Virus record (IMG/VR): IMGVR_UViG_3300029305_011788
Span: 1 to 64,000 of that record
Direction: 5' to 3' (one strand)
Source: a virus
Lineage: Duplodnaviria > Caudoviricetes
Length of the DNA stretch: 64,000 nt
Positions within the stretch are counted from its first letter, which is position 1. Each line of letters starts with the position of its first letter. Positions 5,126 through 62,799 of the stretch are shown piece after piece. Position numbers and translations under genes: made by a program. The notes below the pieces were generated by a model that did not search any database, was not told the DNA's origin, and was given only the letters and a program-made list of their open reading frames with translations.

Positions 5126-5128
5126 AAG

Positions 5129-6243: not shown

Positions 6244-7101
6244 CTACACCCCCAGATACGCATTGGTGTGAATGATCTTCACACGCAGTTTTGTCAGTCC
6301 TGTGCCACGAAGATAAAAGCGGTTCTTGCCCTCACGCAGCGTCAGCCAAGTTGAGCCGGAAACAAGGCGGTTGATGATATTTGTCTTGACACCGCCCCTG
6401 TCGAGCGTTACCGTTTTGTTTCCTGTTTTGGTAGTAATCGTCACAATATCTCCTGCAAGAAGGTCGCCTGTGATCTGCAAGTATTCATCGGTGTCGGCAT
6501 TATACAGTGTCGGAGAACGGACATCTTCGAGGGCTTCAATTTCGAGCGTGAAGCCTGTCTCATCGCCGTCATTGATGATTTCCATGATATTCTGTGTGTT
6601 ATACTTGCCGAGGATAAAAGGCTCTGGATTGCTTTCTGTCGGGAACGGGAATGTGAATGCACCTGTGATCTGAGAATAATATGCCATGACAGATTCCGTG
6701 GAATACCAGTAGATGTCAGGACACAGAATAGAAATCTGCCCGGTTGTGAGCATCTCAAAATTCTGTACCTCGCAGGTTTCCACATAGCCGGTAGTAAAAA
6801 CATCGATGCCTGCGGTCTTGTAATAGACCTTGATAAATCGGCTCGGTTTCACCACCTTGTAGAGCTGATGCCGGCGCTTTTCTACACCGATTCCGCGCAT
6901 CTCAAAGGAAATGACCACATTCCGCTTCTCGATGAAGGCGTTGTTCAAATAGCTGCCGTCCATGCCTGCGTAGGAGGAGGTGCTGATCGTGCCGGGCGGC
7001 GGGGAAAGTCCTTCGATCTTTGAGGTCATATACTGGTTTGCTGTTGCCGTCATGTCGATCTGGTCTCCGGCTTCATTTTCTAAGATTAAGCTGAAAAACA
7101 T
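6244..7101 (-). CDS. Distal tail protein (Dit)
   Basis: First late gene after the tape measure; IEGLSPP...DGSYL..A.IEKRNVVI; C-terminal LREGKNRF. Confidence 0.8.
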   Translation of the reverse strand: MFFSLILENEAGDQIDMTATANQYMTSKIEGLSPPPGTISTSSYAGMDGSYLNNAFIEKRNVVISFEMRGIGVEKRRHQLYKVVKPSRFIKVYYKTAGIDVFTTGYVETCEVQNFEMLTTGQISILCPDIYWYSTESVMAYYSQITGAFTFPFPTESNPEPFILGKYNTQNIMEIINDGDETGFTLEIEALEDVRSPTLYNADTDEYLQITGDLLAGDIVTITTKTGNKTVTLDRGGVKTNIINRLVSGSTWLTLREGKNRFYLRGTGLTKLRVKIIHTNAYLGV

Positions 7102-19796: not shown

Positions 19797-22463
19797 TCAG
19801 ATGACCACAAGATCATGGTCGGGTTCATCATATACAGATCCCTGCATTTCGTGACGGATACATCTGTCAAGTGCCATGATCCAAGCCACAATGCCGTCAA
19901 TCTTTTCTGTCGATTTCTTTTTACTCGGTTTGATGTTCTCCGCCGCATCAATTTCAGCAACCACATTGCCCGCCATCCAGCGCAGGACAGGGTTGCCGCC
20001 GTGTATAAACTGCCCTTCGAGAATGAGCTTGTACAGTTCTTTCATCGGCGGGGACATATCCTTGAAGCCCATGCCCATCGGAACAACGGTAAAGCCGTCA
20101 CCCTCAAGGTCGGTGATAAGCTGTGTGGCATTCCAGCGGTCGGCAGCAATTTCCTTGATGTTGTACATCGTGTGCAGCTCGTTGATCGTTTTCCGCACGA
20201 AATTATAATCGACCACATTGCCCTCGGTGATATGAAATAATCCCATGCGCTCCCATACATCGTAGGGAACATGGTCTCGGCGCACTCGCAAATCAAGCGT
20301 TTCTCTTGGCAGCCAGAAGTGCGGGACAACGATGTATTTCTCGCCGTCATGCAGCGGAGGGAACACCAGCACAAATGCCGTGATGTCCGATGTGCTGGAC
20401 AGGTCAAGACCTGCGTAGCATTCCCGTCCCCGCAGTTTTTCAAGGTCGATAGGAAGATTGCCCCTGTCGTAGATATGCTCCGGAATCCATGCAACGATGC
20501 TACCAACCCACTGATCAAGACGTAGCTGACGGAATACATTTTCTTCCGCAGGATTCGTCAGTGCTTCACGGTGGGCATCACGCACTCGGTCAATGGTGAT
20601 TGTGTATCCGAGCGATGGATTTGCCTTGTACCAAGATTCCTCGGCATTCCAGTCATCGCCGTCATTCAGTCCGTAGATGACCGGATAAAAGGACGGATCA
20701 ATACGCCGTCCATCGAGAATGTCTTTTGCTTTGGTGTGATACTCGTAGCAGATGCTGTTGCGGTCAGTGCCGGCGGTTGTAATCAGGAAGTACAGCGGCT
20801 GAGTACGGGCATCGCCGGATCCCTTTGTCAGAACATCCACAAGGCTGCGGTTCGGCTGGGCATGAAGTTCATCCAAAACCAGACCGGATACATTCAGTCC
20901 GTGTTTTGTACCGACTTCTGCTGAAAGCACCTGATAGAATCCCACATTGCTGTAGTTCACCAGCCGTTTTGTCGCCGCCATGATCTTGGAGCGTTTCAGG
21001 AGCGCCGGTGTCATTTCCACCATTCGCTTTGCTACATCGAATACGATGGATGCCTGCTGTCGGTCGGCGGCTGCACCATAGACCTCAGCGGAAGGCTCAT
21101 TGTCGGCGTAAAGCAGATACAGTGCAATTGCCGCCGCAAGCTCACTGTTGTGCGTAGGCATAAACGATGTTCCTGCAAGATATTGGTGGCTCGGACTGTC
21201 CACCTGAATGCACTGCATTTTCACAGGATGATCCACAGGCTGAATGTCCAGTAAATAATGAAAACAGGAGCGAGTTTCTTCCACCCGCGCCCGTGTGCGT
21301 GTGTACTTTCGTTTCAGTCTTGATGTCGGCTGATCGTCAAAGGTAGTAAACCGGACGATATACAAAATCTCTCCGGTCGGCCACCCATGCCGAGTAGAAG
21401 GCTCACATTTCACTGCATTTTTGATACCGAGCGACCACAGCAGTTCTCTGACGGAAAGCGCCAGTTCTCGCAGTGTTGTGACATACACACTTTGCCCCTT
21501 TCGTTCGCCGATACAGCCGTCCGAATCCATCAGACCTTGCAGCAATGCCCACCGCTGCTCTGTGGATGCTCTCAGATATTCCGGTCGGATCTTTTTTTCA
21601 CGGAAGCTGTCAAGCAGGACCGCCTTCAGTTCACTGTACTTTATGATCTCACTGCCGCCGCATTTCTGCGGATAACGGTTGTGTACCTTATACGGAATAT
21701 TCGAGATGATGTCCTCGACATCCTCCGTCCGAACAGTAATCTCCGGCTTGGTGGCATTGCCGTTTCCGAGCCAGTAGCCGTACAGATATGGATCAATCGG
21801 TAAATCTGCCGCCTTTGTCTGAAGGACACCGCATACCGGAATTCGGATAAGGGAATCCCGCTTTGACTGCGGTCTGTCGGAAAAACGCTGTCTGTATTCC
21901 GAAGTCCTGCGATAGATCTCACCGGTTGTCCAGAGGACATCTTTGCACTTGCCGTAAATATACTGACAGTTCCACAGATGCCGTTCTCCGGCGATGATCG
22001 AAGTGCCGTCTTTGAAGGTCAGCTTGTAGGCTTGCTCTGTATCATCCACAGGGCTTTTCGCAACCACATGGCACGGATTTCCGTTCTCATCAAATACAGT
22101 ATCTCCGACCTTCAGATCGCCCATATTGGTGAATCCCTGCGGAGTCGGAATAGGCGTATCCAGAGCGAGCTGCTTTCCATTTTTCTTTGGAATTTCGACA
22201 TAGGCTGTGCGGAATTGCCTCGTATCATCCTCTTTGACGATGCCAAAAATGTCACGAATGATCTGTTCCTGCCACGGCAATAACCAGAACGGCTTTCCCG
22301 CCCATCTGCCTTTGGTATGGCACAGGTTTTCAATGAAGCGCACAGCCCTGTCCGCCTTCGCCGCATCGTAGTGCGATTCCGGCAGCATGAAGCGTGTCGG
22401 CTGGTAGTTCTTCAGCTTCGGATAGTTTTTCGGGCGCTCCCGCGCCCTTGCCGTTCCTGCCAT
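19797..22463 (-). CDS. terL: Terminase large subunit, interrupted by an intein
   Basis: Exteins join as YVEIPKKNGK|SELAA (Walker A); VLDELH Walker B; GLDLS and KIDG nuclease motifs. Confidence 0.95.
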   Translation of the reverse strand: MAGTARARERPKNYPKLKNYQPTRFMLPESHYDAAKADRAVRFIENLCHTKGRWAGKPFWLLPWQEQIIRDIFGIVKEDDTRQFRTAYVEIPKKNGKQLALDTPIPTPQGFTNMGDLKVGDTVFDENGNPCHVVAKSPVDDTEQAYKLTFKDGTSIIAGERHLWNCQYIYGKCKDVLWTTGEIYRRTSEYRQRFSDRPQSKRDSLIRIPVCGVLQTKAADLPIDPYLYGYWLGNGNATKPEITVRTEDVEDIISNIPYKVHNRYPQKCGGSEIIKYSELKAVLLDSFREKKIRPEYLRASTEQRWALLQGLMDSDGCIGERKGQSVYVTTLRELALSVRELLWSLGIKNAVKCEPSTRHGWPTGEILYIVRFTTFDDQPTSRLKRKYTRTRARVEETRSCFHYLLDIQPVDHPVKMQCIQVDSPSHQYLAGTSFMPTHNSELAAAIALYLLYADNEPSAEVYGAAADRQQASIVFDVAKRMVEMTPALLKRSKIMAATKRLVNYSNVGFYQVLSAEVGTKHGLNVSGLVLDELHAQPNRSLVDVLTKGSGDARTQPLYFLITTAGTDRNSICYEYHTKAKDILDGRRIDPSFYPVIYGLNDGDDWNAEESWYKANPSLGYTITIDRVRDAHREALTNPAEENVFRQLRLDQWVGSIVAWIPEHIYDRGNLPIDLEKLRGRECYAGLDLSSTSDITAFVLVFPPLHDGEKYIVVPHFWLPRETLDLRVRRDHVPYDVWERMGLFHITEGNVVDYNFVRKTINELHTMYNIKEIAADRWNATQLITDLEGDGFTVVPMGMGFKDMSPPMKELYKLILEGQFIHGGNPVLRWMAGNVVAEIDAAENIKPSKKKSTEKIDGIVAWIMALDRCIRHEMQGSVYDEPDHDLVVI
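21147..22172 (-). mobile_element. 342-aa class 3 intein with LAGLIDADG homing endonuclease
   Basis: Starts QLALDTPIP and ends PTHN followed by Ser; W in RHLW, C in MQCIQV, T in THN; endonuclease blocks YGYWLGNG and LQGLMDSDG. Confidence 0.9.
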
Positions 22464-22936
22464 CAGCCACCTCCGAGCAATTCATCCATATCGTCAACGG
22501 CAGCGTTTTTCATATCCGCACCGGCTGTGATACGGCTTCTTGCCGCCGGAGTCAGACCGAACTGCTCTGCGATCTTATTCATGATTTTCAGATAGGTCTG
22601 AGCAATGGACACCTGCGGAACCTGCTGCCAGTAGCCGGACTTCGTTTTTACAATCGTACCGTGCTGCGTCATAAATTCCTCGGCTTCCTTCCAACGGGCG
22701 TATGCCTGACAGTACGATGCGAATGCCGCCTGATCGACCTCGGTTAGCACACCGATCTGTTCGAGCTGTTTAGACAGCCTGCGCCATTCCTTTTTCGCTT
22801 CCGGCTCCAACCACTTCGGACAAGGCGGCGCTTTGCGTTCCGGCTTCGGCTCTGCATCATTCAGCGGACGCTTGCCCGGATTTCCTTCCAGCTCTTTGAT
22901 CGCTGTCGGCTTTGGTTTTCTGCCTCTCTGAGCCAT
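22463..22936 (-). CDS. terS: Terminase small subunit, P27 family
   Basis: MAQRGRKPKPTAIKELEGNPGKR and FGLTPAARSRI; TGATG overlap with terL. Confidence 0.92.
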   Translation of the reverse strand: MAQRGRKPKPTAIKELEGNPGKRPLNDAEPKPERKAPPCPKWLEPEAKKEWRRLSKQLEQIGVLTEVDQAAFASYCQAYARWKEAEEFMTQHGTIVKTKSGYWQQVPQVSIAQTYLKIMNKIAEQFGLTPAARSRITAGADMKNAAVDDMDELLGGG

Positions 22937-23021
22937 CCGCATCACTCCTTCCTCAAAAAATCTGCATAAAGAAAAGACCTGCATGCTGCAAGCCTCTCCT
23001 ATGTATAAAACCACCATGAAT

Positions 23022-23285: not shown

Positions 23286-23350
23286 CCGCTTCACCTCCTT
23301 GCCGTGGGGCGATGGGGCGGCTTTGTGCTGCCGCCCGCCGTCCGTTTTGT

Positions 23351-23575: not shown

Positions 23576-23861
23576 AGTGTTTACCTCGTTCTTTCGTAGT
23601 TTTCGGTAGGCTTTGCCCTTCCGTTGTACCCATATTACCATAGGTCGGCGGATATATCAAGCGGCTAAACTGCCAGAATGTGCAGGGCGATTTTTCGGCG
23701 TTTGTTGTACATATTATGCCTTTCCCCAGAAGGCGCACAGTCGCCCTGTGTGGGCGGCTTTCAGTGTGGGGCAAGTTATCCGCAGGAGCCTCAAAAGCCG
23801 CGACACAGGCGAACGTGGCGCGGAACAGCCCCTCCGCAGAAGGACTGCTCCGTTTTGGCAA

Positions 23862-24134
23862 TCAGCCGCCGTAGTACTCCTCGATGTACTGTGTGCCGTC
23901 CTCCTCGGTGACCACGCTGGGGAACCGTACCTTGTGTCCCTGCTCGGTCATGATGCCCGCGGCAAGGTCGGCGATCTCACCGAGGAATGCCATGTCCCAT
24001 TCGAGGTCGGGGTTCTCGGTCAGCACCTTGCAGAATTCAAAGGCTGCCTCGTAGATGTCATCGTTGCGGTCTGCTTGCGCATCGGTCAGTTCCAGATTCT
24101 CGGCTTCGCCGCACTTTGTAGTGTTCTCGTTCAT
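23862..24134 (-). CDS. Array cargo: acidic hypothetical 90 aa
   Basis: Follows repeat promoter 2; GGAGG RBS. Confidence 0.75.
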   Translation of the reverse strand: MNENTTKCGEAENLELTDAQADRNDDIYEAAFEFCKVLTENPDLEWDMAFLGEIADLAAGIMTEQGHKVRFPSVVTEEDGTQYIEEYYGG

Positions 24135-24381
24135 GTAGATTTCCTCCGTTTTTCGTTGTTTTCGGTTCGGTTTCCCGTTCCGTTGTACACACTATAACTC
24201 TTTTTTCGCACATTATCAAGCGTGAGTAATCACGATCATACCGGCTGTTTTTTGCACTGAATTGTGTACATTATAGCTTGCGGTAAATTGCGCCAGAACG
24301 CGCAGTGTGGGCGGCTTTTATCTCAGGGCAAGTGATCCGCAGGAAAGCCGTAAGCCACCACACAGGCGAACGTGGCGCAAG

Positions 24382-24561
24382 TCAGGGCTTGCTGTTTCTG
24401 CCCAGCTCGTAGGCTCTTGCCAGCATCATGCGGAGCGTCATTATGCTGACCTCGGTGGTATCCGCATCAATGCCCCGGAAGTCCAGCCCGCCGCGCTCAG
24501 CAAGCACAAGGCTTTCTTCCATTGCGATCTGCTCCAATGCCTTCTGGATTTCGGTATCCAT
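24382..24561 (-). CDS. Array cargo: 59-aa hypothetical, absent from the ORF track
   Basis: Hand-translated MDTEIQKALEQIAMEESLVLAERGGLDFRGIDADTTEVSIMTLRMMLARAYELGRNSKP with an AAAGGAG RBS; similar to the C-terminus of 26723-27088. Confidence 0.7.
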   Translation of the reverse strand: MDTEIQKALEQIAMEESLVLAERGGLDFRGIDADTTEVSIMTLRMMLARAYELGRNSKP

Positions 24562-24615
24562 GTATGCGCTCCTTTCGGTGGATGCCGCCCCTCCGGAGAA
24601 GGGCGGCTCGTTTTC

Positions 24616-24978
24616 TCAGCCTGCGAAGTTTTCAAGGTAGTCGCTGATCGCCTTTGCCGTTTTGGTGTAGTCCGCTGCGGTTGGGCGGTAGCCGTACCAC
24701 TTGGGGTCATTGTAAGCCGTCCAGACGTAAAGCCCGTCGTGCTTGCCCCAAAGGTCCTCGAACTTCACCGTCAGGCTGTCGATCTTGCCCTCGGTGCGGT
24801 TCAGCACCGTGATCAGGATGCCGTAGCGGCGGTCCGCCTCGATGCATCTTGCGAACTCGACCTTCACCGTGGTGGTGTCGGTCAGGCGGGCGATGCAGGC
24901 GCTTCCGACCAGCTTGGGGTTCTTCATGGCGGTGACCTTTGCGGTCATCTTCTTCAGTTCGGTTTCAAAAAAGTTCAT
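24616..24978 (-). CDS. Array cargo: hypothetical 120 aa (MNFFETELKK...)
   Basis: Follows repeat promoter 3; GGAGG RBS. Confidence 0.75.
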   Translation of the reverse strand: MNFFETELKKMTAKVTAMKNPKLVGSACIARLTDTTTVKVEFARCIEADRRYGILITVLNRTEGKIDSLTVKFEDLWGKHDGLYVWTAYNDPKWYGYRPTAADYTKTAKAISDYLENFAG

Positions 24979-25170
24979 GGTGGAATCCTCCGTTTGTTTT
25001 ATTCGGCGGGGCGTTTGCCCTTCCGTTGTGTCACATATTACCATGATCTCCCCGGAATAGCAAGCGGCTAAACTACCAGAATGTGCAAGGCGATTTTTCG
25101 CTGATTGTTGTACATATTATGCCGCCGCCCGAAGGCGCGGAGCAGAGCCGAAGCCCTGCCCCTGATGCGG

Positions 25171-25548
25171 TCAGAGCATTACGCGGATGCCTTCGACCTC
25201 GTAGTCGTCCATGACATGATAGTCGTTGTCGTTGCGGGTAATGGAATCAAGCCCATACACCGTACAGCCGAGCCGTCTCATCTGATGCAGTGCTTCAATC
25301 AGAACTGTGGTTTTTGCCGTTACCACAATGGTTGTGATATTGGCAATGCGGAGCGTGTTAAGAAAATCCTCCATGTCGCCCTCGTTCGGCAGGTCGGTCA
25401 CTTCGTACTTGCTGCTGTTGTGACGGCGGCTGTCCTTGTAGTTCCACAGTGCCTTCCTTGCACCGAGGCTGTAGCCCGACTTCTGACCGTTGCTCTTGCG
25501 TTCGTAGATTTTGCGATCCATCTGTTCAAACGTGTAAATGATATCCAT
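25171..25548 (-). CDS. Array cargo: hypothetical 125 aa
   Basis: AAAGGAG RBS before MDIIYT. Confidence 0.7.
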   Translation of the reverse strand: MDIIYTFEQMDRKIYERKSNGQKSGYSLGARKALWNYKDSRRHNSSKYEVTDLPNEGDMEDFLNTLRIANITTIVVTAKTTVLIEALHQMRRLGCTVYGLDSITRNDNDYHVMDDYEVEGIRVML

Positions 25549-25603
25549 GTATTTTCTCCTTTCGGCATTCGGCTGCCCGGTGAAGGGCAGCCCCGCCTTT
25601 GTT

Positions 25604-25960
25604 TTAGTCAATAATGTGCAGCACCACCATGCCATTCGGTGTCGGGATGAAGATTTCAGGCTCCCAGAAGATTGCCTTGTACTTTTCGATCTGCTCATCG
25701 GTCAGCCCTGTGAAATCCTCGAAGCCCAGTCCGCAGACGAAGAAGGTACCTTTGATCGGGCCGTATTTCTCAACCGTTCTGTTCCATGCAAGGTCATCGC
25801 GGAACAGCCCCTCCTCGTTGCACACAACGGCGATGTTGTCGGTTTCGCTCGGATACAAGGCCTGAATGTAGCCATCCACCTCCGCCTGAAGGTTCTCAAG
25901 GGTGTGTTCGATGTCCTTGACGTAGGGGCGCTTGCCGGGTTCGCATACCAGAATTTTCAT
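25604..25960 (-). CDS. Array cargo: DUF3846-like protein
   Basis: MKILVCEPGKRPY...LQAEVDGYIQ...CNEEG...NR...GTFFVCG. Confidence 0.7.
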   Translation of the reverse strand: MKILVCEPGKRPYVKDIEHTLENLQAEVDGYIQALYPSETDNIAVVCNEEGLFRDDLAWNRTVEKYGPIKGTFFVCGLGFEDFTGLTDEQIEKYKAIFWEPEIFIPTPNGMVVLHIID

Positions 25961-26196
25961 GTAGATTCGCTCCTTTTGTATGATTCCGCTTGTCTGGCGG
26001 TAGTGACATATTAACTCTTTTTCTGCGATAAGTCCACGCCTTTTCGCAAAATAAATGTACCAGACATGAGCCGATATTTCAGGCGGAATTGTACATCGCA
26101 AAGAACGCGCACAGTCGCGCCGTGTGGGGCGGTTTTCCGCAGTGGCAAGTTATCCGCTGTCGCCATGAAAAGCCCCACACAAGCGAACGTGGCGGC

Positions 26197-26475
26197 TTAT
26201 TCCGCCCTCTGCCGTGCAAGCTCTGCTCTGAGCTGTGTCAGTTCGCATAGCATCTCAAATGAGCGTCCGTACTGCTCCATGTATGCAGCGATGTCGTAGT
26301 CTGCGCAGCACAGCAGCTCGAACTTGTCGGTCACGCCGTTCTTTCCGACCGTGAACTTTGCCTTTCTCGGAAACTGCCGGTCGAGCGTGCCTTCAAAGCC
26401 GTGCTTGTTGAACCAGTCGATTGCGTACATCTCCTCGTTGGAAAGTACCCTTGTCGCTTTGATCAGGTCGATCAT
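26197..26475 (-). CDS. Array cargo: hypothetical 92 aa
   Basis: Coupled to the upstream ORF by a 4-nt overlap. Confidence 0.7.
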   Translation of the reverse strand: MIDLIKATRVLSNEEMYAIDWFNKHGFEGTLDRQFPRKAKFTVGKNGVTDKFELLCCADYDIAAYMEQYGRSFEMLCELTQLRAELARQRAE

Positions 26476-26660
26476 TCTTTCTCACCTCCGTATTCCTTAA
26501 GGTAGGCGTTCACGCGGTCGCCGTAGCCCATCTCAGCAAGCTCCTGCGGTTCAAGGACTTCCAGAAGTGCTTCCATTGCAATCCGCTCAGTGAGCAGTCC
26601 ATCCGTTGAAAGGTTCGCAATGATTGCGGTCAGGCATCTGACCTGTTCGTATGTATCCAT
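26472..26660 (-). CDS. Array cargo: hypothetical 62 aa
   Basis: GAAGGAG RBS. Confidence 0.65.
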   Translation of the reverse strand: MDTYEQVRCLTAIIANLSTDGLLTERIAMEALLEVLEPQELAEMGYGDRVNAYLKEYGGEKE

Positions 26661-26722
26661 GTTCTTTCCTCCTTCGGGTTTGGCAGCCCCTCCCTGCGGA
26701 AGGGCTGCGCTGCTCCGTTCGT

Positions 26723-27088
26723 TTACTTGCTCTTGCGTCCTGCCTCATAGGCTTCTTTCAGGGCTGCTTCCAGTCCCCAGACCGAAACCTCGATGAAGTC
26801 CTCGCGGTCGCAGTGGCGGGTTTCGAGGTCTCCGCGCTCGGCTACCAGAATCAGGTGCTTTGCGGCAATCTCGTAGACCTTCTTGTCGATGCCCTCCAGC
26901 GGATGCTCGGCTCTCTGCAGCTCGCGCTCGTATTTGGCGATGCTGCTGTCCATGTTCTTCAGTGCCTGCGCCTTTGAGATACCGTAGACCTCAAGGCAGA
27001 CCTCTTCGGTCATCTGCTCGGTGGCGGCTCTGCCGTTCCGCAGGAAGTTCAGGGTGGTCTTGATCTCGTTCAGCTTTTTCTTGGTCAT
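26723..27088 (-). CDS. Array cargo: hypothetical 121 aa with ERGDLETR..D..DF.EVSVW..ALKEAYEAG domain
   Basis: Follows repeat promoter 5. Confidence 0.75.
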   Translation of the reverse strand: MTKKKLNEIKTTLNFLRNGRAATEQMTEEVCLEVYGISKAQALKNMDSSIAKYERELQRAEHPLEGIDKKVYEIAAKHLILVAERGDLETRHCDREDFIEVSVWGLEAALKEAYEAGRKSK

Positions 27089-27372
27089 GGTGGTGTACCT
27101 CCGTTTTTTGTTTTCGGCTGGGCTGTCTGCCCTTCCGTTGTGTCACATATTACCATGATCTTTCCGGAATAGCAAGCGGCTAAATGTACAGAATGAAATC
27201 GGCGTATCTTCGTCATTTGTTGTACATAGTACACCATGCCCACAGGAAGTTCACAAATGCGCCAGAATGCGCCGTGTGGGGCGGTTTTCCGCAGGGGCAA
27301 GTTCATCGCTCACCGCAGGAAAACCGCACACAGGCGAACGTGGGGCAAGCCAGCCCCGCAGGGCTGAACTTG

Positions 27373-27756
27373 TCAGCCCTCGGTCGGCGGAATCCACTGT
27401 CCCGTCCTTTCATCGAAAAGGTAGTAATACGGGATGCCCCAGTCGTCTCTCATCAGCGAAACAACGCTCTTGTGGGTGACCGCAGGCTGCATCGGCTCGT
27501 TGCGGTCGCGGTGGTATGCAACCGTCACGCCCTCCGCGGGCTTCTCGAAGCTGTGCGGCTCGTCCGCATCCGGCGCAAGGCGCTCACCGAGGATGCTGAT
27601 GTCTCCGAGGGCAAGCAGCGCCTTGACCTTCTCTGCGGTGTTGTAATGCTCGGTGAGGATCGGCATCTGGTGGTCGGGGTAGCCGTCCCAGTGGCAGTAG
27701 ATCGTTTCCGTGGTGCCGTCCTCGTGCAGGATGCCGATTCTTGAATTCGTGCTCAT
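27373..27756 (-). CDS. Array cargo: hypothetical (MSTNSRIG...IYCHWDGYP)
   Basis: Follows repeat promoter 6. Confidence 0.75.
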   Translation of the reverse strand: MSTNSRIGILHEDGTTETIYCHWDGYPDHQMPILTEHYNTAEKVKALLALGDISILGERLAPDADEPHSFEKPAEGVTVAYHRDRNEPMQPAVTHKSVVSLMRDDWGIPYYYLFDERTGQWIPPTEG

Positions 27757-27958
27757 GTTCATAGACCTCCGTTTTTTTTGTTTTCGGCGGGCTGTCTGCC
27801 CTTGCCGTTGTGTCACATATTACCATGATCTAGCCGATAAGTCCACGTCTATGTGCAAAATAAATCGTAGAAGAATCGCCGTATTCACCCTTTCGTATTG
27901 TCGGATGTACACATGAGTGAAAGGGTGGAGCAGAGCCGAAGCCCTGCCCCTGTTGCGT

Positions 27959-28453
27959 TCACCCCTTCAGCTCATCCTCGGTCATCAGCCTGAAGTTTTT
28001 GTCCTGCCAGAAGGAAATGTAAACATCGTAGCGGACATCCCATTCGCTTTCGTAATATTCGTCTGCTTCCTCATCGTATTCCTCGCTGGTCTCGACCTCT
28101 GTATAGCTGTAGACCTCTCTCTGCTCGAAGCCCTCGCCCCAGCCGTCGCTGTACTGTCCGCTGAGGTATTCCTTGAGCTGTGCTGTGTCATCATCCGTCC
28201 AGTCGTCATCTACCTCGCAGGTGGCAAGTCCGTAGAGCTTTCTGCCAACCCACTCTGCGCTCATTGTGACCTTGTGGAGCTTTTTGTAGTAGGTTGCGCC
28301 GTGGTAGTCGTCTGCGTACTCGGCAAGGTCGGTATTGTCGTTCTCCAGTGTTTCGATAAGCTCTGCGGCGTACTCCTCGGCGGGGGCTGTGAAGCAGTTG
28401 CTTTCGCTTGCAATCTGGGCAATCAGCGGATTGTAAATTTTCAGGGTTTTCAT
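27959..28453 (-). CDS. Array cargo: acidic hypothetical (GQYSDGWGEGFEQ motif)
   Basis: Follows repeat promoter 7. Confidence 0.75.
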   Translation of the reverse strand: MKTLKIYNPLIAQIASESNCFTAPAEEYAAELIETLENDNTDLAEYADDYHGATYYKKLHKVTMSAEWVGRKLYGLATCEVDDDWTDDDTAQLKEYLSGQYSDGWGEGFEQREVYSYTEVETSEEYDEEADEYYESEWDVRYDVYISFWQDKNFRLMTEDELKG

Positions 28454-28709
28454 GGTGGTGTACCTCCGTTTTTGTTTTCGGCGGGCTGTCTGCCCTTCCG
28501 TTGTGTCACATATTACCGCCTTTTGCCTGAAAAGTCCACGCCTATGTGCAAAATAAATCGTAGAAGAATCGCCGATTTTCGCAGTTATAACTGGTACATA
28601 TACCAACGCCCCACAGGAGGCTCACAAACGCGCCGTGTCGCGCCCGAAATCCTCCCAACAAACAAGCGGCGCAGAGCCGTAGAGCCCCACACCGCCCGTT
28701 GTACGCCCC

Positions 28710-28913
28710 TTATTCGGGAATGTACTTGTCGTGGATGATGCCGAGGATCTTGTCCTGTTCATCGATGCTGATGCCCATGCTTTCGAGGGCTTCCCTCGTG
28801 CCGCAGTCGGGGCAGATCAGTGTATCGTTGTCGTAGCGGGACAGCGCCGGTCGCTCGGTGTAGGTGCGTCCGCACTTGGGGCATTTGCGTGGTTCGTTTA
28901 CTCGGTCTTTCAT
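28710..28913 (-). CDS. Array cargo: small Zn-ribbon protein
   Basis: CPKC...CPDC. Confidence 0.7.
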   Translation of the reverse strand: MKDRVNEPRKCPKCGRTYTERPALSRYDNDTLICPDCGTREALESMGISIDEQDKILGIIHDKYIPE

Positions 28914-28964
28914 TTGAATTCCTCCTATGTAGTTGGTGGTGTGCCGCCCGAAGGCGGCAGGCTG

Positions 28965-29228
28965 CTATTCTTCGGTTCGTTCGGTGTGGCTGAGGATCTC
29001 TGCGGCGCTGCCCGACTCTGCGTATCCGCAGTCCCAGATGGCGAGGAGCATCTCCTCGTCGGTTTCGGGAACCTTGATGCTGTAGGTGATCTTCCGTGCC
29101 CGAATGTCGATCAGCATCTTGGTGGTGATCTCAAGGAAGTCGGCGGGGATCTCTCTGGTCGTGCCGTCCTTTGCGATCAGGCGGACTCCGTGGCGGCGAA
29201 GGCTTTCAATATGTTCTTGGCTGGTCAT
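28965..29228 (-). CDS. Array cargo: hypothetical 87 aa
   Basis: Follows repeat promoter 8. Confidence 0.65.
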   Translation of the reverse strand: MTSQEHIESLRRHGVRLIAKDGTTREIPADFLEITTKMLIDIRARKITYSIKVPETDEEMLLAIWDCGYAESGSAAEILSHTERTEE

Positions 29229-29513
29229 GTTCAGGACTCCTTTGCGTTATTTTCCCTTGCGGTAGTGACATATTAACTCTTTTCGGGGCTGATTGCAAGC
29301 GGCTAAATGTACAGATCATGATGGGCGATTTTTCGGCAGTCATTGTTCAATTTATGCCTTGCCCACATTTGCGCCGTGTCGCGCTGTGTGGCGCGGTTGA
29401 CTGAGATGGGATAACCGTTCGGAGGATACCCCTTCCGCCCCACACGGGGCGACGTGGGCGCTGTGTGTGCGCCCGTGCCGTTCCGCTTTGCATCCGCCCC
29501 GCAGGGCAGGCCG

Positions 29514-30458
29514 TTAAGGCCTGCCGAAGCGGAATGCGTTGTCGCCAGTCAGGTTTTCAGTTAAAACCGTTCTGGCAGTCTCGAACTCGGCTCCGATAAA
29601 GCCCATTCTCATCAGCCAAGTCCGCATTGCGAACTTTTTGTTTTCCTTCTGCTGTTCCTTGGGGCTTGCGCTTCTGAGGTCCTTTGCCATCTGGCTCATT
29701 GCGAGGCAAAGCTGAATGTAGCTCTTGAGCTTGCCTGCGTGGAGTCCGTTCTGCTTGCCGTTGGAAGGCGGTGCGAACTGGAAAAGTCTGAACTCGACCG
29801 TGCCTTTTGTGAAGGTCGCGTGCAGGTTGAGCATGTGGTATCGGCTGCCGTTGTAGTGGTGCGTTCTGCCGCTGCTGTAGCCCTGCGAACCGTACCAGAT
29901 GTCCGCAAGCTGTGCCATCGTGCGGGGCTTTCTGCGGTTGAGCTGTTCAAGGAATCGCGGGTCAACCGTTCTGCAATACTGGCTCATTCTGTAGCTGTCA
30001 ACCTTGATTGCCTCGGCGATCAGCGTTTCGTGGCTTGCCATGATGTTCGCAAGGTTTCTGAGGCTCTGCGGTGTGTGTCCCTGTGCGCCGATGTGAATGT
30101 GGACTCCGCATCCTCTTGTGTAGTCGCTCTTTGCGCCTGCCTTGCGGAGTCTTCTCACAAGCTCCTGCAGGGTTTCGATGTCTGCGTAGTGCAGGATCGG
30201 TGTGACCAGTTCGCACTTTTCGCTGTCGGAGCCTGCGATGCTGACATCCTTCTGGAACTTCCACTCGCGTCCCTGTGCGTCCCATGCGCTGTAGGTTTCG
30301 TAGCCGTTGCGGTGGCCTGTGTACTCGGTGCGGTCTGTGCCGAAGAACTCGGCGGCAAGCTGTGCGGCAGCCTTGCGGGTGATGTTGTTCATCTCGATCT
30401 CAACCCCAATGGTCTGCTCCTTCATTCTGTTGATCTGCTGTGCGGTCTTCTCAGTCAT
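29514..30458 (-). CDS. Amidoligase (COOH-NH2 ligase type 2)
   Basis: TIGVEIE, KDVSI, CELVTP, CGVHIHIG, RYHMLN, TVEFRLF motifs. Confidence 0.85.
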   Translation of the reverse strand: MTEKTAQQINRMKEQTIGVEIEMNNITRKAAAQLAAEFFGTDRTEYTGHRNGYETYSAWDAQGREWKFQKDVSIAGSDSEKCELVTPILHYADIETLQELVRRLRKAGAKSDYTRGCGVHIHIGAQGHTPQSLRNLANIMASHETLIAEAIKVDSYRMSQYCRTVDPRFLEQLNRRKPRTMAQLADIWYGSQGYSSGRTHHYNGSRYHMLNLHATFTKGTVEFRLFQFAPPSNGKQNGLHAGKLKSYIQLCLAMSQMAKDLRSASPKEQQKENKKFAMRTWLMRMGFIGAEFETARTVLTENLTGDNAFRFGRP

Positions 30459-30603
30459 TTTTGTATCCTCCGTTTCGGTTTTCGGTGGGCTGTCTGCCCT
30501 TCCGTTGTGTCACATATTACCGTCTTTCGGAGGATATATCAAGCGGCTAAATGTACAGATCATTTCGGTGTATTTTTCCCGTATCTCTGGTACTTTTACA
30601 TAC

Positions 30604-30738
30604 TTGATAAACTTGCAATTCTATGGTAAACTTGGATACGATGGAATAGGTTCTCACATTTTCGGGAGCCCCAGTGCGGTATAAAATCGGCGGTCGGGAA
30701 GGCAGAAATCCAGCCCTGCCATTCCGCCGTTTTTTCTT
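30604..30738 (+). ncRNA. Candidate ~100-nt small RNA with its own promoter and terminator
   Basis: TTGATA-17-TAAACT with TG at 30604-30632; GGTTCTC/GGGAGCC stem; long CGGCGG...CCGCCG stem + T-tract; no ORF beyond M-E-stop. Confidence 0.45.
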
Positions 30739-31208
30739 TATCTATACAGATGCCTTGTGCTTTGCTCGTAGGCTTCGTAGAGGAATTCGGGATCGAATCC
30801 GAATGACCGATAACCTGTCACGCAAGTCCAGAAGTATCGGGGTGTCGGTTCTCCGAGCCGTCGCTTTTCATTCATGATGTACAGAAAGCCGTTTGTCATC
30901 ACCGTCCTGCCGCTTGCAGTGCGGAACACCGGGAGTCTGATCTCCTTTTTATAGTAGCAGACCGGGCAGCCTTCGTAGCGATCGAGCATCTTCTCATGCT
31001 CCGCTGTGACCTCCCAGACCGCGATTGGAACAACGCCGTCCGGCTTCGGCTCGATGGTCAGGTAGAATCCGGTCTTGCTGCCTTTGAAGAGCAGCTCGTA
31101 ACCTTCGAGCAGCGCCGTTCCTACCGGCTTTGCACCGGGGCATCGCATCTGCATCTGTCTGCGGTTGAGGTTGCTCCCGTAGGCGAGGTAGTATCTTTTC
31201 TTGCTCAT
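30738..31208 (-). CDS. Gamma-glutamylcyclotransferase-family protein
   Basis: YLAYGSNL and LDRYEG motifs. Confidence 0.85.
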   Translation of the reverse strand: MSKKRYYLAYGSNLNRRQMQMRCPGAKPVGTALLEGYELLFKGSKTGFYLTIEPKPDGVVPIAVWEVTAEHEKMLDRYEGCPVCYYKKEIRLPVFRTASGRTVMTNGFLYIMNEKRRLGEPTPRYFWTCVTGYRSFGFDPEFLYEAYEQSTRHLYR

Positions 31209-31464
31209 GTGATCTCCTCCGTTCAGGGTATTTGGCGGGCATCCTGCCTTGCCGTTGTGTAGCATATTACCATACCCTGCGGAGGTTATCAAGCGGGTAA
31301 ATGTACAGATCATAACGGGCGATTCCTCGCCGTTTGTTGTGCATATTACGCCTTGCCGTAAAACGCGCCGTGTCGCGCTGTGTGGGGCATAAACCGTAAC
31401 GGAGTAACTGTCGGAGGATACCCGCAAAGCCCCACACAGGCGAGCGTGGCGCATTTGTGCGCGT

Positions 31465-31881: not shown

Positions 31882-32120
31882 GATTTTTCCTCCTCGTTGG
31901 TGATGATTGTGAATTCGTCTGCGCCTTCGATCAGGGAAAGCGTTCTGCCGTTGTCCCATTTCATATGGACATTGCCGGCATCGTCAATATAATCAACGGA
32001 ACCGGTCGTTCCGGGCGGAATGGGTGCGTAGGGATCGTCCATGTGATTCAGGCGGATGCGGGTGCCTGCGGGATAACGCTCCCGCAGGGCTTTCAGTTCA
32101 TGTTCATTCGGAAACCGCAT
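31878..32120 (-). CDS. DUF4314-like small protein
   Basis: YPAGTRIRL..MDDP...IPPGT.G.V..IDDAG..H..WDNG..L.LI.G.D. Confidence 0.75.
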   Translation of the reverse strand: MRFPNEHELKALRERYPAGTRIRLNHMDDPYAPIPPGTTGSVDYIDDAGNVHMKWDNGRTLSLIEGADEFTIITNEEEKS

Positions 32121-33096
32121 CGTACTCTTCCTCCTCGGTGGTCTGTGCGGCTGCCTTTGCCGCCTCACGCTTTGCCTTTTGGCGCTCCGTCCATTTTGCC
32201 TTTTCCTCATCGTTGCGGAAAGCGGTATGCCCGGTCAGATGCTCCAGAAGGATGCGGCGGTCGGTCTTGTGGTCTGCGCCGCCGAAGCCGATGCGTACCA
32301 GCCAGACGCGCATTGCGTACTTCTCGTTGCTGTCATCGACATCCTTTGCCTGCACGCGCTTCTGCGTCAGTGCCATGCTGTTCATCGCTGCGGCGAGGTT
32401 CGTGAATGCCTGCACATGGTCGGCATCCGGCGCTTCACCAAAACCGTCAAAGATGAGCTTGTCATCGGCAAATCGGATGCCCTTCAGTTCAGGGTTCGTT
32501 TCTTCCCATTCTCTGATAAAGGCGATCAGCTCGTAAGTGCTGCGGAACTCATGTCCGCCAATCTCATCCACAAGGCTCTTATCGGCGGCGAATGCTCCGC
32601 AGGTCGCCTTGCTGAGAAGTGCGCCCCTTGCGTGGATCATGCAGATGAGGTTCGTGAGGCTCTGCACCGTGTGGTCAGCCAGCGGAAGTGCGACCGTTAC
32701 CGCAATCGGGAAGCCGTCCGTTTCGGTCTCCGGCTCATTGTCATTGGTGACCTCTTCATCGGTGTCCGGCGTATCCTCCTCGGTGTCGGAAATGATGGTC
32801 ACATCAATCTCGACATAGTCCTCTTCGGCTTCCGTTACGGTATCCGTTCCTGCCGGCGGAGTGATTGTCTCGCCGTTGTAGCCTGCATCGGCAAGTCCGT
32901 CCAGCACCTTCTCCACGATCTCGGTGTCGCTGCGGTCGGTGAAGCTGAGGACCGCGTCCTTGCCGAGGGTAAAGATGTCGATCTGGTAGGCGCAGCTCGG
33001 AACGCCGAGGTACTTGACCTCTGCACCGATGATCTCTGCGATTTTCTGTGCCAGTGCCTTGCGCTGGCTCTTTTCGATATTGTACTTGATTTCCAT
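32104..33096 (-). CDS. Conserved phage protein (often labelled 'virulence-related protein'; function unknown)
   Basis: KYLGVPSCAYQI and NEKYAMRVWLVRIGFGG motifs; first gene after repeat promoter 11. Confidence 0.7.
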   Translation of the reverse strand: MEIKYNIEKSQRKALAQKIAEIIGAEVKYLGVPSCAYQIDIFTLGKDAVLSFTDRSDTEIVEKVLDGLADAGYNGETITPPAGTDTVTEAEEDYVEIDVTIISDTEEDTPDTDEEVTNDNEPETETDGFPIAVTVALPLADHTVQSLTNLICMIHARGALLSKATCGAFAADKSLVDEIGGHEFRSTYELIAFIREWEETNPELKGIRFADDKLIFDGFGEAPDADHVQAFTNLAAAMNSMALTQKRVQAKDVDDSNEKYAMRVWLVRIGFGGADHKTDRRILLEHLTGHTAFRNDEEKAKWTERQKAKREAAKAAAQTTEEEEYDAVSE

Positions 33097-33331
33097 AATA
33101 AAACCTCCGTTTTTACTGCCGCCCCTTGCGCCTTGTGCGCTTGGGCTGCGGCGTTTTCGTAGTCACATATTACCGCCTTTTGCCCCGGAATGCAAGACTG
33201 TAAAACGGAGAATGTACGGGGCATATCCGCCCCTGTGATTGTGCATAATACGAGTGTAAAAAAGAAGCCTGCGGCAGAACATCTGATTTAGTATCAGAAC
33301 GTTCACAATTTGCTGCAAGGCTTCTTTATTA

Positions 33332-33670
33332 CTATTTCTTTCTCGGTGCGAAAACCCTGACCGGAACACGCTGTTCCCGGCAGTGGTCGATCACATATTT
33401 TGTACCGCGGGACTGTCCGTCCCAGAATGCGAGAACCACATCGGCATAGGCGATGATCTCCAGATTCCTTTTCAGCGGGGCGCTCCTGCCGAAGCGTTCA
33501 TAATCCGGCAGAAACTCCTTCAGCGGAATGCCGTGTGCCTGTGCATATGCCCGCGCATCCGAATCAATGCCCCTTGCTCCTCCGCTGACGATTTCTGTGA
33601 CATCTTCCGGAAGATACCGTTCAAGGTCATTCACATGAAGTCCCCGTGAGCCAATAATTGCTATTTTCAT
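33332..33670 (-). CDS. SLOG-superfamily (DprA/YspA-like) protein
   Basis: IAIIGSR, IVSGGARGID, APLKRN, FWDGQSRGT motifs. Confidence 0.75.
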   Translation of the reverse strand: MKIAIIGSRGLHVNDLERYLPEDVTEIVSGGARGIDSDARAYAQAHGIPLKEFLPDYERFGRSAPLKRNLEIIAYADVVLAFWDGQSRGTKYVIDHCREQRVPVRVFAPRKK

Positions 33671-38926: not shown

Positions 38927-40190
38927 TCGCGTCACCGTCCTGCGGCATCGCTGCGACCGCTTCATCGAAGGAGAGCTTCTGACCGCCACGGATAACATAT
39001 GCGACCTCGGCAGTCTGCTTTTCGTGACACCATGCGAGATACCGCTTGACGATGACATCCACAAATTTCGGATCAAGCTCAATGCCACGGCAGACACGGT
39101 CTGTCTCGCAGCAAGCGATCAGCGTGGAGCCGCTGCCGAGGAACGGATCGAGGACGATGCCGTTTGTCATGGTGCTGTTTTTGATCGGGTATGCCATCAG
39201 CGGGATCGGTTTTGTGGTCGGATGGTCGGGACTGCTCTTGGGCTTGTCGTATTCCCATACAGTCGTCTGCTTGCGGTCGGCGTACCACTGATGCTTGCCC
39301 TTCTGTTTCCAGCCGAACAGACACGGCTCGTGAATCCACTGGTACGGACTCCTGCCCAGCACCAGAGAATTCTTCTTCCAGATACAGCAGCCGGAAAGCT
39401 GGAATCCCGCCTCCTTGAATGCTCTGCGGAAGTTCAGCCCTTCGGTGTCGGCGTGCCATACATAGATGCTGCCGTCATCGGCAAGGTTGTCATACATACA
39501 CTTATAAGCGGCAAGCAGGAAGTTATAGAAATCGCTGTCACTCATGTTATCGTTCATAATCTTGCCGGCGGTCTCCTCAACGTCCACATTATAAGGGGGA
39601 TCGGTCAGGACGAGGTTTGCCTTCTGATCGTCCATCAGCTTTGTGTATGTCTCTGCGACTGTACTGTCGCCGCAGATGACTTTGTGCCTGCCGAGAATCC
39701 AGATGTCTCCCGGCTGTGAGAAGGTCGGCTTTTGCAGTTCTTCCTCCACATCGAAGCTGTCCTCTTTGACCTGCTTGTCGTGTACTTGATTGAAAAGCTG
39801 CTCGATCTCCGGCGGATCAAAGCCGGTCTTGCCGAGGTCGAAATCGCTGTTCTGGATATCTTCGAGCAGTTCTGCCAGAAGGCTCTCGTCCCATGCGCCG
39901 GTAATTTTGTTGAGCGCAATGTTCAGAGCCTTTTCACGCACCTTGTCGATGTCCACCACGGCGCAGGGTACCTCGGTGTATCCGAGCGCCATCGCTACGG
40001 TCAGTCTTTGGTGTCCGCCGATGATCGTCATATCGGCATTGACAACAAGCGGATCGGCAAAGCCGAATTCGTCGATGCTGTTTTTAATTTTCTCGTATTC
40101 CTTATCGCCGGGCTTCAGATTTTTACGGGGGTTATATTCCGCAGGCTTCAGTTCCGAGACAGGGATCATACGAAGTTCTGCTGTTTTCAT
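38919..40190 (-). CDS. ParB-N-domain-fused amino DNA methyltransferase
   Basis: YNPRK..IDEFGFADPL..IIGGHQR (ParB-N); TDPPYN, HPTTKP, LDPFLGSGST. Confidence 0.9.
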   Translation of the reverse strand: MKTAELRMIPVSELKPAEYNPRKNLKPGDKEYEKIKNSIDEFGFADPLVVNADMTIIGGHQRLTVAMALGYTEVPCAVVDIDKVREKALNIALNKITGAWDESLLAELLEDIQNSDFDLGKTGFDPPEIEQLFNQVHDKQVKEDSFDVEEELQKPTFSQPGDIWILGRHKVICGDSTVAETYTKLMDDQKANLVLTDPPYNVDVEETAGKIMNDNMSDSDFYNFLLAAYKCMYDNLADDGSIYVWHADTEGLNFRRAFKEAGFQLSGCCIWKKNSLVLGRSPYQWIHEPCLFGWKQKGKHQWYADRKQTTVWEYDKPKSSPDHPTTKPIPLMAYPIKNSTMTNGIVLDPFLGSGSTLIACCETDRVCRGIELDPKFVDVIVKRYLAWCHEKQTAEVAYVIRGGQKLSFDEAVAAMPQDGDANG

Positions 40191-62363: not shown

Positions 62364-62582
62364 GTCTTTCCCCCTGTTTACTGTTATAGTCCTGTGTCTC
62401 CTGATATGCTCTCTTGTTCTCTTCACATCTGTAGTTTCAACAGCAGTAAATACCTTTTGGCGAAGGCGGGGTCACAACCATAGAACAGAAACAGTATGCG
62501 GTGATTGTTCATATGTCATATAAGCCTGACAAAGCTTCCGCGCCGAATCGTTCATATGTTCGTTTTTGTCTGCGTGTTTCCC

Positions 62583-62674
62583 ATTATACACCATCAGGAA
62601 CTTCTTGTCAATAGCTTTTGCAAAGAATTTCTTTTCTTTTTTCTATTGACAGAAAAGCTATTGTATGCTATAAT
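62583..62674. promoter_or_regulatory. Back-to-back consensus sigma-A promoters with an 11-bp inverted-repeat operator candidate
   Basis: Minus TTGACA-17-TATAAT at 62611-62583; plus TTGACA-17-TATAAT at 62646-62674; CAATAGCTTTT (62609-62619) and AAAAGCTATTG (62653-62663). Confidence 0.75.
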
Positions 62675-62799
62675 GTATTCAACAAGTGTTCTGAATACAG
62701 GCAAAGTGTATCAGGACGATGCTGCGAAGCGGTCGCTGCAGCTTTTGGCATAGCACCGCTGTGCATTTTTGAGTCATAATTGGAACGGAGGATGTTGTT

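Follow-up and report, generated by a model that had tools for sequence, protein, structure and literature searches.

Imperfect hairpins coupled to promoters at cassette junctions in temperate phages of Firmicutes gut bacteria

The attC sites of integrons carry an inverse core RYYYAAC at the 5' end and a core GTTRRRY at the 3' end, which pair with each other, and integron cassettes are mostly promoterless and expressed from a common promoter. REP and BIME elements associated with a RAYT are 20-40-nt palindromes with a conserved GTAG-type head, found in genomes that also encode the RAYT, a Y1 transposase. The early genes of phage T7 have RNase III processing hairpins between them and one shared promoter region. 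Promoter-early stem-loop (PeSL) cassettes are found in T4-type myoviruses (Arbiol, Comeau and Krisch 2010, PMC2839356; Comeau et al. 2014, PMC4122927), and both transcription termination and recombination have been demonstrated for PeSL stem-loops (PMC2839356, PMC4122927).

The window analysed here is the 64,000-nt stretch at positions 1 to 64,000 of IMG/VR record IMGVR_UViG_3300029305_011788, a 72-kb provirus of a Ruminococcus/Oscillospiraceae host; the phage is of the temperate siphophage type and has a P27-type terS, a CI-like repressor and an integrase. A covariance-model search of the window placed six imperfect hairpins of ~95 nt on the minus strand (E-values 1e-14 to 1e-20; Table 1), all in the orientation of the minus-strand provirus genes and each within 4 nt of the position given in the original prediction. 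Each copy folds as a single long irregular hairpin of -41 to -48 kcal/mol, and its stability stands out from that of dinucleotide shuffles (z-scores of -3.2 to -5.4). The 3'-arm motif occurs seven times in the window, where 0.19 occurrences are expected, and the 5'-arm motif is found there only inside the hairpins. The divergent seventh element that had also been pointed out is degenerate, retaining GUGUGGGGC and the 3'-arm block GCGCGACACGGCGCG while missing the 5'-arm CCACGUUCGCC, and it gave no covariance-model match at E<=0.01.

Table 1. Hairpins of the array and their associated promoters in the window (promoters given as -35 box, spacer and -10 box).
Feature	Positions	Strand	Covariance model (bits)	Fold (kcal/mol)	Fold z-score	Location or basis
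Hairpin copy 1, GGAUAAC class	23729..23825	-	90.6	-41.1	-3.2	g90 on one side, DUF7678-DUF6809-terS unit on the other; small GC hairpin precedes
Promoter of copy 1, TTGATA, 17 nt, TG-TAATAT	23632..23660	-				Sigma-70-like, ~69 nt downstream of hairpin
Hairpin copy 2, GGAUCAC class	24286..24382	-	97.1	-41.8	-4.0	Directly 3' of the stop codon of the short DUF6900 gene
Promoter of copy 2, TTGATA, 17 nt, TATAGT	24191..24219	-				Downstream of hairpin
Hairpin copy 3, GGAUAAC class	26103..26199	-	93	-44.3	-3.3	Overlaps g92 stop codon; DUF3846 promoter downstream
Promoter of copy 3, TGGACT, 17 nt, TAATAT	26008..26036	-				Read from sequence/module layout
Hairpin copy 4, GAUGAAC variant	27255..27350	-	81.2	-43.8	-4.4	Between g127 and the long DUF6900 gene
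Promoter of copy 4, TTGCTA, 17 nt, TG-TAATAT	27147..27175	-				Read from sequence/module layout
Degenerate seventh hairpin	28604..28702	-				Partial arms (alignment); fold differs
Hairpin copy 5, CCUCC-loop class	29367..29464	-	71.5	-46.9	-5.0	Downstream of amidoligase gene
Promoter of copy 5, TTGCAA, 17 nt, TAATAT	29270..29298	-				Read from sequence/module layout
Hairpin copy 6, CCUCC-loop class	31361..31456	-	93.8	-47.7	-5.4	Two GGACT genes, one on each side
Promoter of copy 6, TTGATA, 17 nt, TG-TAATAT	31264..31292	-				Downstream of hairpin

The array occupies the accessory-gene region that extends from the DNA-methylase genes to terS, and the cargo genes of its cassettes are mostly without known function. 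At these junctions the window hairpins lie, as had been proposed, between the stop codon of the upstream cassette and the next promoter with its conserved leader. In 48 of 50 distinct copies a sense-strand ORF ends ahead of the hairpin, which starts a median of 10 nt past its stop codon, and the promoter, a near-consensus sigma-70 type, follows ~70 nt downstream, with a spacing to the -35 box of 67-80 nt. Other modules of the array have the hairpin slot filled by canonical terminators with U-tracts (30459-30737 and 33097-33340) or by small GC hairpins (25131-25173 and 27919-27961). A separate small GC hairpin precedes three of the six window copies, so that a terminator role is perhaps redundant there.

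The best explanation of this layout, which we hold with moderate confidence, is a composite boundary in which a terminator or insulator hairpin is joined to a promoter and doubles as a recombination linker. Hairpin, promoter and leader, in that order, would separate self-contained expression cassettes. In the sense transcript the long GC-rich stem would fold immediately behind the upstream cassette's stop codon, where it most likely halts or attenuates read-through and shields the 3' end of the mRNA; with read-through blocked at the stem, each cassette would be driven by its own promoter.

Absence of U-tracts had earlier been taken to mean that the hairpins are not ordinary terminators. That absence holds roughly for the window copies, which show GUUUU or UUCUUU at most, a run of five or more U occurring in none of the six, and it does not hold for lower-GC homologues, in which T-runs are present. 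On the sense side, 22 of 115 copies have TTTT after the 3' arm, and on the antisense side none do (0/115); among relatives below 53% GC the corresponding counts are 15 and 0 of 42, and at least five T within 9 nt past the stem are found in three of the 50 copies of the close set. The window copies do lack a proper U-tract, but the argument built on this is weakened by three results: the sense-only T-runs in relatives, the canonical terminators in the same slot and the termination by PeSL stem-loops (PMC2839356). Like an intrinsic terminator, the element has its GC-rich stem, read on the sense strand, directly behind the stop codon, and in a subset of homologues T-runs come next, on that side only; it differs in that most copies, including all those in the window, have no run of five or more U and in that the stem is 3-4 times the usual length and conserved in sequence. 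We infer that the hairpins act as terminators or mRNA stabilisers. Two other transcript-level roles were considered and rejected: an antisense small RNA, for which a plus-strand -10-like box, the hairpin and a U-tract terminator suit copy 1 only, and an attenuator switch built from local hairpins within the arms, whose stems of 4-6 bp are weak.

Covariance-model matches extend the family to 152 copies (~113 distinct) on ~100 IMG/VR contigs. A sigma-70-like promoter is present on exactly one side of 145 of the 152 copies, always the sense side of the model; copies were oriented by this adjacent promoter, as orientation by ORF length failed in GC-rich DNA. A search of cultured phages found only promoter and leader similarity, in two Ruminococcus phages. 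Weak copies in one annotated Ruminococcus phage suggest a relationship between the phages of this family and Ca. Heliusvirales, a lineage of gut phages that is widespread in humans and animals; the Heliusvirales paper mentions neither hairpins nor promoters.

Pairing within the hairpin is maintained above shuffled controls, as was also seen with a smaller set of copies. The covariation score of the wider family is 0.185, compared with 0.130 when shuffled (0.185 is reached by 0 of 500 shuffles) and 0.02-0.11 for slid controls, and 11 of 18 pairs have changed on both sides. The compensatory changes described for the window itself are weak when its six copies are taken alone, with a both-side change in one of 18 pairs, and become evident in the wider family. 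Plain MAFFT alignments of the apical region yielded almost no signal with RNAalifold, since the helix register differs between subtypes, and a blind search of column pairs for covariation returned much noise. Rfam 15 gave no match in the window at the gathering score and chance-level matches only at E<=10. With covariation above shuffles and no matching Rfam family, the original prediction is partly borne out, namely as regards a real family of hairpins at cassette junctions that Rfam lacks.

It is highly improbable that the hairpin is a neutral or selfish palindromic repeat that gene conversion has carried along with the promoter module and that lacks a function of its own. High identity among copies and the shuffling of arms and apical parts between positions would fit such a repeat, but all 145 oriented copies face the same way, the elements consistently follow stop codons, compensatory changes maintain the pairs, and the hairpins persist in distant lower-GC phages with diverged flanks.

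The same pairing data do not single out RNA, because the sense strand has no stability advantage (mean -41.1 kcal/mol, versus -42.1 for the antisense strand) and the excess of G-U pairs over A-C mismatches is small (52 versus 38). A strand test by stability or wobble pairs was accordingly set aside, there being no usable asymmetry by which RNA and DNA could be separated. This lack of strand bias in the fold would suit a double-stranded DNA site, an imperfect palindrome bound by a phage regulator or extruded as a cruciform ~115 bp upstream of the promoter that it controls, as would the near-constant spacing to the -35 box. In human-gut relatives the canonical arm sequence lies on the opposite arm as its exact complement, which fits a motif read in the duplex or a former perfect palindrome. 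We nevertheless regard such a site as unlikely: 45 nt between the arms is an unusual geometry for a dimeric regulator, half-sites never occur alone, the compensatory changes point to pairing between the arms and not to two independent binding sites, and some copies have no promoter, the ribosome-binding site following directly (L023, L025 and L008). Operator sharing with CI was also rejected, as the operators of the early promoter region (62560-62700) are of a different kind and TGTACA boxes are absent there.

Sequence conservation in the hairpin goes beyond pairing. Two apical classes are present, in agreement with the original prediction, GCGGAUAACUUGCC in four window copies and GGGUAUCCUCCGA in two, and the motif of each class is conserved while the adjacent helix varies. 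An internal loop and a bulged C are retained across the alignments, and the arm sequences and within-class apical motifs are conserved even in distant low-GC relatives. This conservation of arms and apices is tighter than a plain terminator would require, which hints at sequence-specific recognition. Among candidate functions for the loops, a pseudoknot between CUUGCC of the class-1 loop and the GGCAAG box behind the hairpin was discarded, since the box also follows class-2 hairpins, which have no complement to it, and is missing after copy 3; a plus-strand DnaA box in the loop of class 1 (TTATCCGCA) was discarded as well, since it has 8/9 matches in one copy and varies in the others.

Such conservation leaves a modest possibility that the element is a regulatory RNA, a 3'-UTR hairpin recognised by another RNA or by a factor from the phage or the host and serving as an RNase III site, as an antitermination signal or through pairing of its loop with ribosome-binding sites. 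Besides the class-conserved apical motifs, the internal loop and the bulged C, the CCUCC class is suggestive: UCCUCCG is exposed in the predicted loop of 27 of 44 copies, the motif is retained in the distant Ruminococcus phage NatCom_23091, and the amidoligase ribosome-binding site (30463-30472) is the exact complement of its 10-nt core GUAUCCUCCG. By a rough estimate, however, such a match over 10 nt, with ~20 ribosome-binding sites to choose from, would arise by chance with a probability of a few per cent. Because the two apical classes are unrelated, no single ligand can account for both; the lack of an Rfam match, the absence of strand bias in stability and the weak G-U excess also count against a regulatory RNA, and the shared orientation of the motif stems from common descent and is not independent evidence.

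Exchange of cassettes at the hairpins is visible among related phages, which differ by whole cassettes at these positions. In one of them (L022) a single hairpin corresponds to window copy 2 on its left and to copy 1 on its right, and the intervening gene g90 is missing. The 3'-arm variants look mosaic, with arms and apical parts shuffled between positions, and the breakpoints are variable, some of them at the 5' edge of the hairpin, some 15 nt beyond it and some in other parts of the module. Position, orientation and pairing are conserved across the family, and copies recombine with one another. Since the 95 nt, the promoter and the leader are repeated within and between phage genomes, they would together form a homology patch for cassette deletion, insertion and exchange. 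The hairpins most likely insulate adjacent transcripts and act as crossover points between phages.

A single-strand recombination site, attC-like or of HUH type and used by a dedicated recombinase, is a considerably less probable account of this exchange, although the location at cassette junctions, the conserved mismatches and bulge, the chimeric hairpin at a cassette loss and the mosaic 3'-arm variants are what it would lead one to expect. Like attC sites, including the highly similar VCR-type repeats of chromosomal integrons, the elements are imperfect hairpins of similar length at the 3' ends of cassettes, with conserved unpaired bases and an arrangement in arrays. Unlike them, they have no core sites and no integron integrase, and they are accompanied by their own promoters and by variable breakpoints. 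Neither RYYYAAC nor GTTRRRY is present in the aligned copies, whose arms, GCGCCACGTTCGCC...GGCGCGAC/GTT..GCGC, have a GTT in the 5' arm and do not show the attC order on either strand. The 72-kb record encodes a single tyrosine recombinase, which reaches 37.7 bits with TIGR02249, for which the cut-off is 265, and is an ordinary phage integrase at the prophage end, ~40 kb from the hairpins. A search for RAYT/Y1 transposases (PF01797) found none in the 72-kb record, with positive controls, and the ~95-nt elements lack a GTAG-type REP head. The suggestion that the hairpins are attC or REP elements is thus not upheld.

Tight conservation of arms and loops across distant gut phages nonetheless keeps alive, as a tentative second reading, a specific, structured recognition element and not a passive terminator, serving either cassette exchange by a phage factor, integron-like in manner with no integron integrase, or, as a 3'-UTR RNA with conserved loops (exposed CCUCC in one class, GGAUAACUUGCC in the other), the control of translation or decay of messages from the phage or the host.

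The composite boundary of hairpin and promoter would explain how the region can vary without regulatory breakage. As a searchable element, it could be used to delimit and catalogue accessory-region cassettes across metagenomes, most of which carry small unknown genes that are candidates for host takeover or anti-defence, and to flag spurious ORF calls over hairpins in deposited genomes.

With the T7 RNase III hairpins the elements share a long irregular intergenic form, internal loops and the lack of a U-tract, and in both cases the upstream message would keep a protective stem at its 3' end; the difference is that each cassette here has its own promoter. The closest analogue of the junctions appears to be the PeSL. 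Each system is built on a composite intergenic motif that pairs a stem-loop with a strong sigma-70-like promoter; the motif recurs many times across a plastic region rich in small ORFans and follows the orientation of the genes, and in both recombination between copies removes or swaps the flanked genes; here the insertions, deletions and replacements at the motifs have left chimeric copies, of which the hairpin that marks the g90 loss in L022 is one and the other mosaics are further examples. There are also clear differences. The hairpin here is ~95 nt long, with conserved irregularities and two apical classes, whereas PeSLs have short G/C stems; it stands ~70 nt upstream of the -35 box, whereas the PeSL stem-loop lies within or next to the promoter; and promoter and terminator activity, which along with circular excision products characterise PeSLs, are in this case sequence-based predictions. 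As there is no sequence relationship between the two and the carriers here are temperate siphophages of Firmicutes gut bacteria and not T4-type phages, the hairpin is best regarded as an analogue of the PeSL and not as a member of that family. The PeSL principle of lytic T4-type phages with Gram-negative hosts would thereby reach temperate Firmicutes phages as well.

The ~95-nt hairpin that recurs at cassette junctions in the window belongs to a family of at least 152 non-overlapping copies, at least ~113 of them distinct, found by exact-pattern scans and then with a covariance model built from the six window copies. These copies lie on at least roughly 100 IMG/VR contigs, a typical contig carrying several, and on several Ruminococcus, Oscillospiraceae and Clostridia MAG contigs. 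Weak copies occur 3' of the amidoligase gene of Ruminococcus phage NatCom_23091, which derives from human faeces and is annotated as Ca. Heliusvirales, a lineage whose describing paper makes no mention of the hairpins or promoters. The 44-aa 'hypothetical protein' XTK83484.1 of this phage overlies a hairpin copy and is probably not a gene.

The IMG/VR provirus record spans 72,226 bases, the first 64 kb of which form the window, and its Pfam content places it as a temperate siphophage. Minus-strand early genes assigned by Pfam encode a sigma-70 region-4 protein, a DUF2800 nuclease, a family-A polymerase, an SNF2 helicase, a D5-type primase-helicase, NrdD, SAM synthetase and several DNA methylases, and are followed by Pfam-assigned packaging and structural genes (terS, terL, portal, tape measure and lysin). 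The terL product (888 aa) carries a LAGLIDADG insert at residues 303-370, upstream of its ATPase and nuclease domains, which is probably an intein. Past the window lie a phage-type tyrosine integrase and a restriction-modification pair; in this prophage arm a C5 methylase stands with an NgoMIV-type restriction enzyme, and an NYN-domain protein, a thymidine kinase and a SRAP protein are also encoded, all before the integrase. The hairpin array is located between the methylases and terS among ~20 small minus-strand genes, including DUF7678, two DUF6900, DUF7698, DUF3846, a zinc ribbon, Amidoligase_2, two GGACT, DUF4314 and several genes without any family assignment. A 330-aa protein that found no match in a Pfam search matches the PHROG 'amidoligase enzyme' family (phrog_2443, E 1e-49), giving the array two amidoligase-related and two GGACT genes.

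Positions of features in the window unless another contig is named
Feature	Position	Strand
Hairpin copies 1-6	23729-23825, 24286-24382, 26103-26199, 27255-27350, 29367-29464, 31361-31456	minus
Paired TGTACA boxes	23700-23715 and 23668-23680; modules 27181-27230, 29304-29350, 31298-31345	
Leader 5' hairpin	27105-27140, 24993-25030, 28469-28505, 30473-30510	minus
Small GC hairpins within shared-promoter units	24562-24615, 25552-25603, 26661-26722, 28914-28964, 23295-23350	
Small GC hairpin GGGGCAGGGCUUCGGCUCUGCUCC	25131-25173, 27919-27961	
Canonical U-tract terminators in hairpin slot	30600-30740, 33250-33300	
Terminator with tracts on both sides	~30680-30737	
Promoter-like site	30604-30632	plus
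Class-2 loop core	29420-29429, 31412-31421	
Amidoligase RBS	30463-30472	
330-aa amidoligase-related protein	32104-33096	
P27-type terS	22463-23017	
terL	19797-22463	
CI-regulated early promoter region	62560-62700	
CI-like repressor	62800-63789	
C5 methylase with restriction enzyme, NYN-domain protein, thymidine kinase and SRAP protein	L111 (arm past window) 2094-3912, 4250-5599; record ~65.1-68.6 kb	
XTK83484.1 over hairpin copy	L112 (PV036433.1 region) 6887-6964; PV036433.1 ~39213-39347	

The six window hairpins have folding energies of -41 to -48 kcal/mol (z-scores -3.2 to -5.4) and align with a mean column identity of 74%, and their arms GCGCCACGUUCGCCUGUGUGGGGC and GCCCCACACRGCGCG occur far above chance, with no isolated half-sites. 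Both apical classes of the original prediction are present, the GGAUAAC-type apex in copies 1-4 (class 1) and the CCUCC loop in copies 5 and 6 (class 2). A degenerate relative lies near 28650; an Rfam search of the window hairpins gave no family match. In model-fitted alignments 79-82% of basal-stem cells are paired. Covariation was 0.133 against 0.103 shuffled in the close set (1 of 500 shuffles reaching the observed score) and 0.185 against 0.130 in the wider set (0 of 500), with slid controls of the wider set at 0.02-0.11 and both-sided changes at 11 of its 18 pairs; since the alignments are biased toward the model and built from related sequences, this gives moderate support, short of proof, for maintained pairing. 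The apical helix differs among subtypes in register and sequence (e.g. GGCUUU/AAAGCC vs GGCAUU/AAUGCC) around constant tip motifs. Sense and antisense strands are equally stable and G-U pairs exceed A-C mismatches only modestly, so the pairing data do not tell whether the hairpin folds as RNA or as DNA.

The position of the hairpin is strongly oriented. Of 50 distinct copies in the close set, 48 follow an open sense frame whose end lies a median of 10 nt before the hairpin (range -3 to 58), and 145 of the 152 matches listed have a one-sided promoter (-35/16-18-nt/-10, at most 190 nt away), on the model's sense side in all 145. In a few copies a ribosome-binding site or unrelated AT-rich DNA comes immediately afterwards, indicating that the hairpin is separable from the promoter. 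Coding-strand intergenic regions are modular, running from the stop codon through, sometimes, a small GC hairpin, then the ~95-nt hairpin, the box TAATATGTACAACAA, a second TGTACA box, a -35 (TTGATA, TTGCTA, TTGCAA or TGGACT), 17 nt, (TG)nTAATAT, a leader containing a short GGGC-loop-GCCC hairpin, then ACGGAGG and ATG. The paired TGTACA boxes (ATGTACAACAA and CTGTACATTTAG, ~45 nt spacing, between hairpin and -35) are probably an operator, and differ from the repeats of the CI-regulated early promoter region (CAATAGCTTTT). All cassette leaders open with GUGACACAACGGAAGGGC, a 5-nt loop (e.g. AGACA) and GCCCGCCGAAAAC, a short 5' hairpin similar in size and loop to lambdoid boxB that could be a 5' stabiliser or an antiterminator site. 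Between genes under one common promoter there are also small GC hairpins, whose loops are of UUCG or CUGCGG type and which have no U-tract; the small GC hairpin GGGGCAGGGCUUCGGCUCUGCUCC forms G-U pairs only on its sense strand.

The lack of U-tracts roughly holds for the window copies, whose post-stem sequence reaches at most GUUUU or UUCUUU, but not for homologous copies in lower-GC relatives. Among distinct copies, TTTT lies no more than 12 nt from the 3' arm on the sense side in 22/115 and on the antisense side in 0/115; restricted to phages below 53% GC, this becomes 15/42 and 0/42, with mean T counts of 5.3 and 2.7. Elsewhere in the array the same slot holds canonical U-tract terminators (two modules) or small GC hairpins (two others). 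The sense-only T-runs and the elements found in the same slot favour, short of proof, a 3'-end, attenuator or insulator role, the U-tract having eroded in the GC-rich lineage under this reading. One canonical terminator, flanked on both sides by A- and U-tracts and adjoining a plus-strand promoter-like site, could be bidirectional.

Conservation of the arms and loop motifs is tighter than a terminator requires. In the human-gut branch the canonical arm sequence lies on the opposite arm as its exact complement, suggesting a perfect-palindrome ancestor or a motif read in duplex DNA. In the CCUCC class, UCCUCCG is exposed in the predicted loop, and all 10 nt of the class-2 loop core GUAUCCUCCG are complementary to the amidoligase RBS CGGAGGAUAC, which could reflect chance or an anti-RBS interaction. 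These features keep alive a hairpin that acts as a regulatory RNA or as a protein target and, with lower likelihood than either, as a structured recombination site.

Gene content does switch at the hairpins. Downstream of a short DUF6900 gene and hairpin, the window has cassette gene g90, the related viral contigs L022 and L006 have DUF7678, and L008 and L011 have unrelated genes; upstream of the DUF3846 promoter and hairpin, the window has g92 and seven other contigs have g62; and after the amidoligase hairpin comes g87, the zinc-ribbon gene or a GGACT gene. The clearest case is L022, whose single hairpin matches window copy 2 across the upstream gene, 5' arm and apical part, then switches inside the 3' arm to copy 1 and its downstream promoter, with g90 absent, as recombination between the two hairpins flanking g90 would leave it. 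Apical and 3'-arm types are reassorted among positions. Breakpoints vary (~15 nt past the hairpin, at its 5' edge or elsewhere in the module), and homology-driven exchange thus fits better than a site-specific cut.

The attC- and REP-like readings first proposed were not borne out: integron core sites are absent, the cassettes have their own promoters and the integrase scores 37.7 bits against the integron model, whose cut-off is 265; for REP/RAYT no Y1 transposase was found in the record and neither the length nor the head motif agrees. In T4-type phages, PeSLs join strong sigma-70-like promoters to transcription-terminating stem-loops; they cluster in hyperplastic regions beside ORFans, and through them modules are shuffled and mini-circles form (PMC2839356, PMC4122927). 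PeSLs offer the closest known logic to the window modules, although the window hairpins differ in sequence, occur in another phage type, are several times longer, keep a conserved sequence and fixed irregularities, and are placed upstream of the promoter rather than within it.
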